DNA from: an uncultured Bacilli bacterium
Lineage (GTDB): Bacteria > Bacillota_I > Bacilli_A > RF39 > UBA660
Assembly (NCBI GenBank): GCA_910583945.1
Contig: CAJTYF010000003.1
Coordinates: forward strand, 3,466-67,465
Direction: 5' to 3'
Length of the DNA: 64,000 nucleotides
Shown here one piece after another: positions 1 through 3,000 of this stretch; within the stretch, counting starts at the first letter, position 1; each line of letters opens with the position of its first letter. A program made the position numbers.

Positions 1-3000
1 CATTCTTCATTTGTTTCTAAAAAAAGTTTTACTCTTTCAATCCTATTTTCGGTGGTTTGATTATCATTATATTTTTCTTCTAATCTTTTTCTAGCCTCTC
101 TACGGCGAGTTTCATTTCTTTTTTGTTCTTGTTCAATTTTTTTTCTTTTTTCATTACCATTCATTTCTTTGGTTGATTCAATAGCTATAATGCTTGGATA
201 AGTGCCTTGTTCTTTTATGATAGCATTAATAATTTTTATGGCTTGTCTTAATGTTTTTTTGACCTGAGGAGAAGCAATAATCTCTTCTACATATTTCGAA
301 GTCATTAAAAGTCGTCCTTTTCCCTTTCCGTAATTTTTTAGAAAGTATTCTCTGGCTTCTTTTTCATAATCAAATTTTTTAGAAACTTGCATAAAATTCA
401 TGCCAGTACTTAGTATATCTTGAATAGCCCGTACTAAAGCCTTATTTCCTAAAGCATGATATTCAAGCATTTTATCATTTTTTAATTTTGTCTTTATTTC
501 TTTAATCACTTCAATCTCTTTAGCGTTTAATTTTTTTATCGAAGATAACATTTTTTCAATCTCTATGATTCCTGGCGCAACAGCAAGTATTTCGATTAAT
601 TTATTATAGTTTTGATAATTTTCTTCGACTAACCATTTAGTTTCTAAATTATTTTCTTTAAATAAATTCATGATATAACGATATGCTTTCATAAGAGAAA
701 ACAATGGTGTCGTTCCATCTTTATCTACCCGAAAACCATTAATGTCTTCTTTTTTCAATCCTAAAACTTCTTTTAATACTTTTATATAAGATAAGGTTTT
801 TCCTTCAAATTTCATACAAAAATCTGTAATATTTTCTAAAGCTTCTGTTGTTAATTTATATTCATTTTCTTTATTTTCGATATAATTTTCTTTTTTTATA
901 TTTTCTGGATGAATAATCCTGATATTAATAAAATCATTTAATAAATTAAATTTTTCAGCAAATACATTTGCTTTGGGTACACATTTTTCTTCTTTATAAA
1001 TAGAACAATGCCCAATTAATTCTTCAAATAAATATTTTTCTTTACCTTGTTGTTTTAATTTTTGATATTCCACAGTATCATTTTCATTTTTAAATCTTCC
1101 ATATGGAGAAAAGGAATTTTCACTTCCTGGACCTTCCCAAAATTTTCTTTTTCTATTAAATAGAGGAATTAAACCTTTTTCCTCATTAGAAAGTATCTTT
1201 TGTAATTCTGGATAAAATTCTTTTTGTTTTTGCAAGATTGCTTCTAATTCTTTTAATAATTCTTCATGACTCACAACTTTTTCCAATGCTCTATATTTGC
1301 CATATTCTTTTTTAATTTCTTGATAATACTCACATGGGTAAAGTCCATTTAACTCAACTAAATTTCGTTCTTCATCGCCAAAAGGAATATAGCCACGATG
1401 AGACATAAAGTAACAGCAAATATTAACAATTTCTTGTTTTTCTAATTTCGTTTGTAGGCCTTTTATTCTTTTTTTTAGCAAATCAGAATCGATTGTATTC
1501 TTATTAGGAAAATGGATTGTTTCAAATATTTTTAAACATTCTTGAACTCTATTGTCTTTCCTTTTAATTCTCCGTCTTGTATTTCTAGCAACTCTTCTTT
1601 CTTCGGCATTAGAGGCTTCACTGTATAAACGGACACCTTTTTTGATGATTTCTTTTGTCTCTTTATCTATAACAGAATAGCCTACATTATTAATTCCTAA
1701 ATCTAAACCAATGACATAATCTTTTACCATTATTTTCCACTTCCTTAACTTTCTTATACCATTTAAGTCTATAGAAGGCAAGGAAAACATTTATATATAA
1801 AAAAAAAATCTATTAATATTTGCAAAAGATTTAAAAGAAAAAATCACTGTACTCTTGTCGTTACCAACGACTCAAATGATGAAGAGTAAAAAATAATAAA
1901 AGCCTAAAGCCAATATTGCTAAAAAATTAGTGAAGAGTCTTGGAAATAGCGGAATTCATATAAATTATCTTCTATATTAAATTACTGAAAAATAAATATT
2001 CTTTTTTATATTTTATTTGCATAGAAAAATAAAGTTATTTCAGGATTATTGTCATAAATATGAGGCTTCCGTTCATAAATTATATGGAGGTAAACTTTAC
2101 AAGATTTGATTCGAAAGAATAAAACTTTATTTAATATTTAGATCATGGTATATTTTTATTTACTTTAGGAAAGGAACTAATTTATGTCTTATATAAAAGA
2201 ACAAATTGCCCTAATTAAAAAACAAGATCCTTCGATAAGTTCTACGTTAGAAGTGTTCTTACATCCTAGTTTTAAAGCCTTACTTTACTATAAAATCGCT
2301 CATCGTCTTTACAGAAAAAAGCACTTGTTTTTAGCAAGATTGATAAGTGAAAGAGGCAAAAAAAAAACAGGTATTGAAATACATCCAGGGGCTCAAATTG
2401 GTAAAAGACTTTTTGTCGACCATGGATTGGGGGTAGTGATAGGAGAAACGGCAATTCTTGGAGATGACGTGACTCTCTTTCATGGTGTCACTTTAGGAGG
2501 AACAGGAAAAGAAAAGGGCAAAAGACATCCAACGATTGGAAATCGCGTTTTTATTGGAAGTGGAGCGAAAATACTTGGAAATATCACAATTGGTAATGAC
2601 GTAAAAATTGGTGCCAATGCGGTTGTTTTAAAAAATATCCCTAATGGGGTAACGGTTGTAGGTATACCTGGTACAATCGTAAAACATAATAGCAAGAAAG
2701 TAAATGAAAGAGAAATGTAAAAGATTAATTTTCTACAAAAAAAACTTCATACCATTTTAAGAAACAATAAAGCGTCCAAACTTTTTTATAATTATCTTTT
2801 TTATTATTTTTATGGTCATTTAATAATTTAATCATTCTTTTTTGATTGAAAAAATCCCCTGCATAAACACTCTCAAATGTGTTTTTTACTTCATTATAGA
2901 AATCATCTTCTTTTAACCAGTCACGCAAAGGAACAGGAAAACCAAGTTTCTTTTTTTTATAGGATTCGTTAGGAATTACTTTTTTTGCTGCTTCTCTTAA

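Follow-up and report, generated by a model that had tools for sequence, protein, structure and literature searches.

Among solved Cas9 structures, the compact subtype II-A enzymes include SaCas9 and St1Cas9, the latter from the CRISPR1 system of Streptococcus thermophilus (CRISPR: short palindromic repeats that are clustered and regularly interspaced). In the St1 system the trans-activating CRISPR RNA (tracrRNA) is presumably encoded on the same strand as cas9 and cas1, in the interval separating them, and repeats of the form GTTTTAG...AAAAC are typical of II-A systems. Csn2 is treated as an adaptation protein in two published accounts (PMC3695520; PMC6182153), and the protein Stu0660 founded a second Csn2 family, which has the canonical ring architecture and no sequence similarity to canonical Csn2 (PMC3695520). 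Here we describe a related system at the edge of a 64,000-nucleotide (nt) stretch of DNA from an uncultured Bacilli bacterium (contig CAJTYF010000003.1, positions 3,466 to 67,465), referred to below as the window. We conclude with high confidence that window positions 3-1730 on the minus strand encode the first 53% of an intact 1,086-aa Cas9 that belongs to a type II-A CRISPR-Cas system and to the compact St1Cas9/SaCas9-like group.

Translation of the minus strand from position 1730 down to position 3 gives 576 codons with zero stops, and positions 2-1 supply the first two bases of cas9 codon 577. By our rough estimate from base composition, the chance of such an open frame at ~26% G+C is of the order of 1e-20. 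The NCBIfam Cas9 model TIGR01865 matches the 576-aa fragment with E=1.7e-86 (291.5 bits, cut-off 100), and the alignment, which covers positions 1-571 of the 1070 in the model, is continuous across fragment residues 5-572. PADLOC Cas9 models match the fragment at E=3e-60. Comparison with solved Cas9 structures gives St1Cas9 at E=2e-33 and SaCas9 at E=6.5e-30.

Codons 1-576 of the 1086 (3-1730, minus strand) span the RuvC-I motif, the bridge helix, the REC lobe, the RuvC-II motif and the pre-HNH linker, and the gene then runs past position 1. The RuvC-I motif YVIGLDLGINNVGYSV (residues 5-20; 1671-1718) aligns with the St1Cas9 N-terminus; its core IGLDLG (residues 7-12) is invariant in 12 of 12 clade members, and the catalytic Asp is residue 10 (codon 1701-1703). 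The Arg-rich bridge helix AEERRVARNTRRRIKRKDNR occupies residues 42-61 (1548-1607) and includes the stretch ERRVARNTRRRIKRK (residues 43-57), whose core RNTRRR is kept in 11 of the 12 clade members and reads RNSRRR in the remaining one (L009). A segment of the alpha-helical REC lobe (residues 236-396; 543-1025) is indicated by the coverage of TIGR01865 and by Pfam PF18470 (Cas9_a), whose match on these residues (E=2.4e-5, 24.5 bits) is slightly below its 26.9-bit cut-off. The RuvC-II motif SIIAIESTKEMN (residues 513-524; 159-194), which carries the catalytic Glu, aligns with IVIEMARETN of St1Cas9; its core IAIES lies at residues 515-519 and is conserved in the clade as IA[IV]E[ST].

The ATG at 1730 aligns with the start codon of all relatives and is preceded, 6 nt away, by a Shine-Dalgarno sequence, AAGGAAGTGG, that can be read directly at 1737-1746 (minus strand). 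An alternative in-frame ATG at 1790, 60 nt upstream, from which some gene callers derive a 1106-aa product, lacks a ribosome-binding site, and nothing in relatives corresponds to it. The first-pass annotation had read a Cas9 truncated by the window edge from this sequence, with RuvC-I, bridge helix, REC landmarks and RuvC-II in the translation from 1730; the open frame, the TIGR01865 match and the presence of all four landmarks bear this out. Its figure of about 55% for the share of the gene inside the window is close to the computed value (576/1086, or 53%). It was also right about why the gene is missing from the list of open reading frames (ORFs), since ORFs that run off the window are not listed. 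The gene should be annotated as a partial cas9 (5' part) and not as a pseudogene.

The region beyond position 1 was read from overlapping contigs of the same species and not from the window's own contig. These conspecific contigs were found by exact look-up of the protein encoded by a neighbouring hexapeptide-repeat transferase gene, and through the cluster of a Csn2-like protein discussed below (P0057, 90% cluster). Two of them match the window at 100.000% identity, L037 over 3,142 nt and L038 over 1,835 nt. A third, L017, is 99.77% identical to window positions 1-11397 and reaches 1,684 nt beyond position 1, and L025 overlaps window positions 1-1187 with one mismatch. The full Cas9 in L017, L037 and L038 is an intact 1,086-aa protein, and residues 1-576 of the L017 protein match the window at 576 of 576 positions. 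HNH_4 matches at residues 577-630 (E=6e-20), and so begins with the first residue outside the window; Cas9_RuvC and RuvC_III also match the full protein, with HHAVDAS at residues 735-741, likewise outside the window. From strain to strain, Cas9 varies at 0-3 residues, with no damage to the catalytic motifs.

Searches with the full protein (phmmer) place it near both compact II-A enzymes. Residues 2-1032 align with residues 2-977 of SaCas9 (5axw) at E=6e-65, and residues 145-972 align with residues 176-975 of St1Cas9 at E=1.4e-65; several further compact Cas9 structures match at E~1e-33 to 1e-44. The earlier description of a small, SaCas9-like Cas9 thus holds in that the full protein has 1,086 aa and is collinear with SaCas9, with St1Cas9 matched equally well. 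Closer relatives were obtained from pattern scans of GTDB genomes and JGI metagenomes, and these show 62-68% identity over the fragment (best JGI match 64%; nothing above 68% in GTDB); the best matches of an initial protein search reached 62-67%. The metagenome-assembled genomes (MAGs) that carry them are labelled uncultured Tenericutes or Bacilli, and several come from animal guts. They share a locus made up of cas9 (~1,077-1,097 aa), cas1, cas2, a gene of ~270-300 aa, and an array with 36-nt repeats and 30-nt spacers. Across 12 clade members the core residues of the four nuclease motifs are invariant. The clade represents uncharacterised compact (~1,080-1,095 aa) Cas9s of uncultured gut Bacilli.

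The first-pass annotation had expected the rest of a type II locus, with cas1, cas2, perhaps csn2, and an array, further along the minus strand. HNH, RuvC-III, tracrRNA, cas1, cas2 and a fourth gene are all found there in conspecific contigs, and the scenario that it had named as contrary evidence (a premature cas9 stop and no HNH, cas1 or cas2) is not what these contigs contain. The full region is visible in the 53.5-kb contig L027, where an M73-like gene, tex, asnB and the hexapeptide transferase gene (on the opposite strand) are followed by the cas locus: cas9 (1,086 aa), tracrRNA, cas1 (297 aa), cas2, a csn2-like gene (295 aa) and eight repeats. After the array come small ORFs, groEL, a DUF4130 gene, a radical SAM gene and a NUDIX gene. 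In the relative L001, cas1 matches the type II model TIGR03639 (E=1.8e-80) and cas2 matches TIGR01573 (E=1.6e-22); Cas_Cas1 and CRISPR_Cas2 are matched in the conspecific contigs L025-L038. No cas4-like gene is present in the locus of the conspecific contigs.

The conspecific repeat is GTTTTAGGATCCTGTGTAATTTAGGTAGTTGAAAAC (36 nt), with spacers of 30 nt. Arrays of 2-8 repeats are found in L027-L030, L035 and L036 and hold 18 distinct spacers in total. The predicted array is thereby accounted for in several conspecific strains; none was seen in the window-identical strain, whose contigs end earlier. The L029 array is a subset of the L027 array, with the extra L027 spacers at the csn2-proximal end, which is the pattern expected from polarised acquisition. 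A full-text literature search for the repeat and anti-repeat strings found no paper, and so far as this search shows, no member of the gut clade has been characterised experimentally.

A 26-nt perfect complement of the repeat directly follows the cas9 stop in relatives and is succeeded by a hairpin and T-run, with cas1 beginning 10-20 nt later. This arrangement places the tracrRNA between cas9 and cas1 on the coding strand. Within the species, L037, L027, L025 and L017 each have an 88-nt predicted tracrRNA that starts 18 nt past the stop codon of cas9, and it is identical in the first three of these. Its predicted layout comprises an anti-repeat, a short stem, a terminator hairpin and a T-run. 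The predicted tracrRNA:repeat duplex (-42.7 kcal/mol) is paired nearly over its full length, with a small bulge near the 5' end of the repeat. When clade members are compared, compensatory changes are seen at three base pairs of the terminator hairpin, and the variable positions of the anti-repeat track each lineage's own repeat. With the 88-nt tracrRNA and the repeat defined, the system could be reconstituted and its protospacer-adjacent motif (PAM) measured.

Because the tracrRNA is located upstream of cas9 in certain type II-A loci, the 453-nt gap between cas9 and the hexapeptide transferase gene (1731-2183) was also examined. The gap is far longer than the ~30-90 nt of relatives, and near 1835-1870 it has a small hairpin with a T-run after it, as might be expected if the tracrRNA sat there in the manner of S. 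pyogenes. As a tracrRNA candidate the gap nonetheless failed: it holds no anti-repeat to any clade repeat, only chance matches of 9-13 nt. Within it there is no credible Rfam match, folding reveals no excess structure (z-score +0.87), the terminator scan is empty, and promoter-like sites do not exceed chance. Since the tracrRNA is found 3' of cas9 in every strain and relative, an upstream tracrRNA deserves almost no credence. We presume that the part of the gap at 1731-2024 (minus strand), an upstream region specific to the cas haplotype and present only in cas-bearing conspecific contigs, holds the cas9 promoter and leader.

The subtype assignment turns on the fourth gene. Searches of Pfam, NCBIfam and PADLOC gave it no match, and neither did a profile run against PDB sequences; its 36 database homologues are all unannotated. 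An AlphaFold model of the 295-aa protein family, built from a 20-sequence alignment, has a pLDDT of 82.8 and a pTM of 0.77. When this model was compared with the PDB by Foldseek, the best match was Stu0660 (3zth, E=1.1e-9), with canonical Csn2 structures next. The modelled fold supports the fourth gene as a putative divergent, Stu0660-like Csn2, and the clade would therefore fall in subtype II-A. The earlier suggestion of a csn2 gene, and hence of subtype II-A, is in this way backed by the predicted fold. Sequence models in current use miss this Csn2, and software that types loci automatically would probably fail to recognise them as II-A.

Assigning the Cas9 to II-C or II-B would account for the failure of the Csn2 sequence models in Pfam, NCBIfam and PADLOC to recognise the fourth gene, for the cas1 match being to the generic type II model 'cas1_NMENI', and for the small size of the protein, a feature of many II-C Cas9s. 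We nevertheless consider this very unlikely. The fourth gene always stands between cas2 and the array and is predicted to have a Stu0660-type Csn2 fold, cas4 is lacking from the locus, the best solved relatives of the Cas9 are the II-A enzymes SaCas9 and St1Cas9 (E~1e-65), and the repeat has the form that is typical of II-A.

Comparison of conspecific contigs revealed that the cas locus is not present in all strains. Most contigs that encode the identical hexapeptide-transferase protein lack cas genes (5 contigs and a further 12 similar contigs), compared with 2 that carry cas9. By blastn breakpoints, the cas-less contigs match the window only from position 2025 rightwards. A boundary zone of the strain-variable segment follows at 2025-2086, where cas-bearing and cas-less strains are ~70% identical (blastn and alignment, L027 versus L013), and from 2087 rightwards the strains are essentially identical. 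The variable cas segment is ~6.9 kb long (L027 5100-12039) and lies between the hexapeptide transferase gene and the groEL side, whose flank is common to both haplotypes. In its place the cas-less haplotype (L013:8197-9841) carries genes for a 461-aa short-chain dehydrogenase and a Pol-beta-type nucleotidyltransferase. We found no remnants of cas genes or repeats in the cas-less contigs, and a PADLOC search of the alternative cargo for a defence function gave only weak nucleotidyltransferase-domain matches. When the window is compared with L027, identity is 99.85% in the cas segment and 98.39% in the adjoining shared flank, a roughly tenfold lower divergence in the cas segment, which suggests that the segment spread recently among strains.

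A second type of variation affects the junction between tracrRNA and cas1. In L017 (L017:1-55, minus strand), the tracrRNA T-run is followed not by cas1 but by GTGTGCCAGGCATGG..., and the contig ends there. This 48-mer is 84-95% identical (BLAST) to multi-copy sequences in Bacillus and lactobacillus plasmids. In two plasmids it forms the extreme 5' end of elements with Rfam matches to group II domains D1-D4 and to domain V/VI; one of the two elements carries an annotated ltrA, and one again directly follows a hairpin and T-run. Rfam returned only noise on the 47-nt foreign tail of L017 itself. L035 starts with the same sequence and holds the entire ~1.88-kb element (L035:8-1887), which ends 14 nt before cas1. 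The element begins with GTGTGCC... (a GUGUG start), scores 127 bits with RF02001 and 52 bits with RF01998 (D1-D4), and contains a 435-aa RVT_1+GIIM maturase ORF directly upstream of cas1. L028 (1-50) begins inside the same element, and L025, L027 and L037 are free of it. The insertion in L017, L028 and L035 is a group II intron sited exactly after the tracrRNA terminator, between tracrRNA and cas1.

Group IIC introns characteristically insert just past terminators (PMC1702495), and the position of this intron fits that habit. Like members of the class such as B.h.I1 of Bacillus halodurans, the element has a GUGUG start past a hairpin and T-run, D1-D4, an RVT_1+GIIM ORF and domain V. It departs from them in that its domain V/VI match (RF00029) in L035 falls under the gathering score, and it is a candidate member of class C. 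We know of no description of a tracrRNA terminator as an intron target, and the choice of this one is probably incidental.

The strain that is identical to the window was captured in three separate sequencing runs (L037, L038 and L039), the last of which has no overlap with the window but carries both of the csn2 lesions described here. In L037, cas9 encodes the full 1,086 aa, cas1 comes immediately after the tracrRNA without an intervening intron, and cas2 is undamaged. Its Cas1 (4789-5670) is without four residues, IKLD, after the AVR at positions 11-13; these residues are present in the Cas1 of other strains, and the segment is conserved in relatives. The csn2 gene (L037 6030-6582; also in L038 and L039) is a pseudogene: a TTA>TAA change turns codon 64 into a stop, and past codon ~176 it breaks off into unrelated sequence, GTTGTGTTAAACATTAAGACTGATTG. 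L037, L038 and L039 all end 26 nt beyond this breakpoint, and the foreign 26-mer is absent from the intact L027 locus, the cas-less haplotype and the window. The stop and the breakpoint are the same in the three independent assemblies, and an NCBI contig of 79,075 nt also carries these csn2 fragments, one of which is 63 aa long. Since csn2 is an adaptation gene and is broken here, the window strain should have lost spacer acquisition and kept its interference machinery. By analogy with described systems, most likely its existing spacers would still be usable, provided that the array was kept, and new ones would no longer be acquired.

The same breakpoint admits a harsher reading, in which it is one edge of a deleted or rearranged stretch, the remainder of csn2 having been lost together with the array; the whole system would then be dead in the window strain, with Cas9 and tracrRNA left without guides and idle or put to non-immune use. 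That three window-identical contigs stop 26 nt past one common breakpoint, that the 26-mer recurs nowhere in the L027 locus, the cas-less haplotype or the window, and that no array was seen for this strain all speak for such an event, as does the related-species contig L008, in which Cas9 and tracrRNA have likewise outlasted the adaptation genes and only four mutated repeats are left. A multi-copy insertion (an insertion sequence or similar) would, however, equally stop three assemblies at this point while leaving the array intact behind it, all other cas-bearing conspecific contigs that reach past csn2 have an array, and Cas9 gives no sign of relaxed constraint, though the divergence is too small for testing. 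We regard loss of the entire system as unlikely while taking it seriously, and prefer the reading in which acquisition was lost and interference retained.

Decay of individual components was seen elsewhere in the species and the clade. In L030 (5376-8655), cas9 is split into ORFs of 507 and 564 aa, and cas1, cas2, csn2 and a five-repeat array remain. In L025 (~4660-4700), the loss of one base from a poly-A run in csn2 (A7 to A6) causes a frameshift that yields a 207-aa product (P0063). This truncated product is recorded on seven contigs, so the lesion recurs, and the poly-A contraction might be phase-variable. The related species represented by L008 (13235-14380) retains an intact cas9 and tracrRNA, but cas1 is reduced to a stub (MAFRTIYIE*), cas2 and csn2 survive only as remnants, and the repeats are the four mutated ones. 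On the related metagenome contig L012 (5700-10600), cas9 breaks off at residue 744 and gives way to unrelated DNA, including a 529-aa ORF that has the look of a serine recombinase by its N-terminal sequence; a mobile element may have inserted into this cas9. Two further contigs (L007:13232-13308 and L011:9222-9278) end 57-77 nt past the cas9 stop in sequence that is not tracrRNA and that has a common motif, TTTGACAGT, which may be the end of another repeated element.

Given such decay, the window cas9 could itself be imagined as the product of degradation, either a pseudogene or a solitary fragment that no functional locus accompanies. The split cas9 of L030, the gene cut at 744 aa by foreign DNA in L012, the loss of cas1, cas2 and csn2 in L008, and the broken csn2 and cas1 deletion of the window-identical strain make the idea reasonable. 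There is nevertheless little chance that it is correct: the window's 576 codons are uninterrupted and match exactly the intact 1,086-aa Cas9 of the 100%-identical contigs, strains differ by at most three Cas9 residues with catalytic motifs undamaged, and tracrRNA, cas1 and cas2 are present after cas9 in L037. We thus return to an intact Cas9 that extends past the window edge. In two species (the window's, through L037, and that of L008), Cas9 and tracrRNA are intact while adaptation genes decay. A joint proposal that Cas9 and tracrRNA are selectively kept alone, for frozen immunity or a non-immune or regulatory role, and that the 295-aa protein constitutes a third Csn2 sequence family strikes us as rather improbable. 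Taken together, the states found within one species (locus absent, intact, intron-bearing, cas9-split and csn2-broken) provide a natural series for the study of CRISPR gain, spread and decay.

Several points weigh against the preferred account. The Csn2 identity rests on a predicted fold with a TM (template modelling) score of 0.54 to 3zth and 12-13% identity. The HNH pair reads E-H throughout the 12 clade members, in place of the D-H that we take to be the rule in described Cas9s, including SaCas9. The 18 conspecific spacers have zero matches among 50,697 phage genomes, and a scan of viral contigs for exact matches to three spacers likewise found zero. The contigs of the window-identical strain stop within csn2 and show no array, and a deletion reaching from the csn2 breakpoint could have taken the array as well. 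Finally, because conspecific strains vary in exactly this region, the window's genome could in principle carry another variant beyond position 1.

On present evidence, the system would operate as follows. Leftwards past position 1, the locus would run cas9, 88-nt tracrRNA (same strand), cas1, cas2, Stu0660-like csn2 and array. The tracrRNA would pair with the repeats of the precursor CRISPR RNA, as established for type II-A. By analogy, Cas9 loaded with the duplex of CRISPR RNA and tracrRNA would cut PAM-adjacent invader DNA through its HNH and RuvC sites, and Cas1, Cas2 and Csn2, acting with Cas9, would integrate incoming spacers on the side of the array nearest csn2. In some strains the group II intron would separate the effector module from the adaptation genes.

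The remainder of the window contains no other recognisable part of the system. Neither TRF nor a direct-repeat search detected a CRISPR array in the 64 kb, no other cas gene and no tRNA gene were found there, and no Rfam family reached the gathering score. The DNA is ~29% G+C; 54 of the 59 ORFs of at least 120 aa are on the minus strand, and the GC skew is negative in all but one 2-kb interval. Divergent from cas9 is the hexapeptide-repeat acyltransferase gene (2184-2720, plus strand; Pfam PF00132), which lies outside the CRISPR system and served as a conserved anchor for finding conspecific contigs. Beyond it come asnB, tex, an M73-like peptidase gene and a HerA/DUF87 ATPase gene. The block at 6783-9955, which is conserved beside tex, comprises the M73 (camelysin-like) peptidase homologue, two small ORFs and the HerA/DUF87-FtsK-like ATPase. 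An AgrB-family ORF lies at 12482-13078 (plus strand), its annotation taken from the conspecific L013, and dense, small, co-directional ORFs at ~37-49 kb have, by layout alone, the look of a ribosomal-protein operon.

A comparison with known systems identifies the S. thermophilus CRISPR1 system as a close parallel in organisation. Cas9 is of similar size (1,086 versus 1,121 aa) and St1Cas9 is among its best solved matches; the order cas9-cas1-cas2-csn2-array, the 36-nt repeats, the 30-nt spacers and the predicted Stu0660-type fold of Csn2 are likewise in common. The two differ in that the Cas9 similarity is distant even though its E-values are strong, that the host is an uncultured low-GC gut bacterium and not a streptococcus, and that the Csn2-like protein has 295 aa here versus 347 aa, with 12-13% identity in the structural alignment.

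SaCas9 (5axw/5czz) is collinear with this Cas9 over nearly its full length and similar in size, and has the same order of RuvC-I, bridge helix, REC, RuvC-II, HNH, RuvC-III and WED-PI; it is no closer to it than St1Cas9 is. The SaCas9 locus presumably has its tracrRNA upstream of cas9 and a canonical Csn2, whereas here the tracrRNA is downstream and the predicted Csn2 is Stu0660-like. The gut-MAG clade (L001-L009, L019 and L021) is a close counterpart of the window's locus, with 61-75% Cas9 identity, a common locus order, a near-identical tracrRNA and repeat, and a shared, unannotated Csn2-like family. Its members come from other species and occupy other neighbourhoods (ftsH, a gene for a ~1,050-aa protein, PfkB and others lie upstream), and the cas locus has thus moved between genomic contexts.

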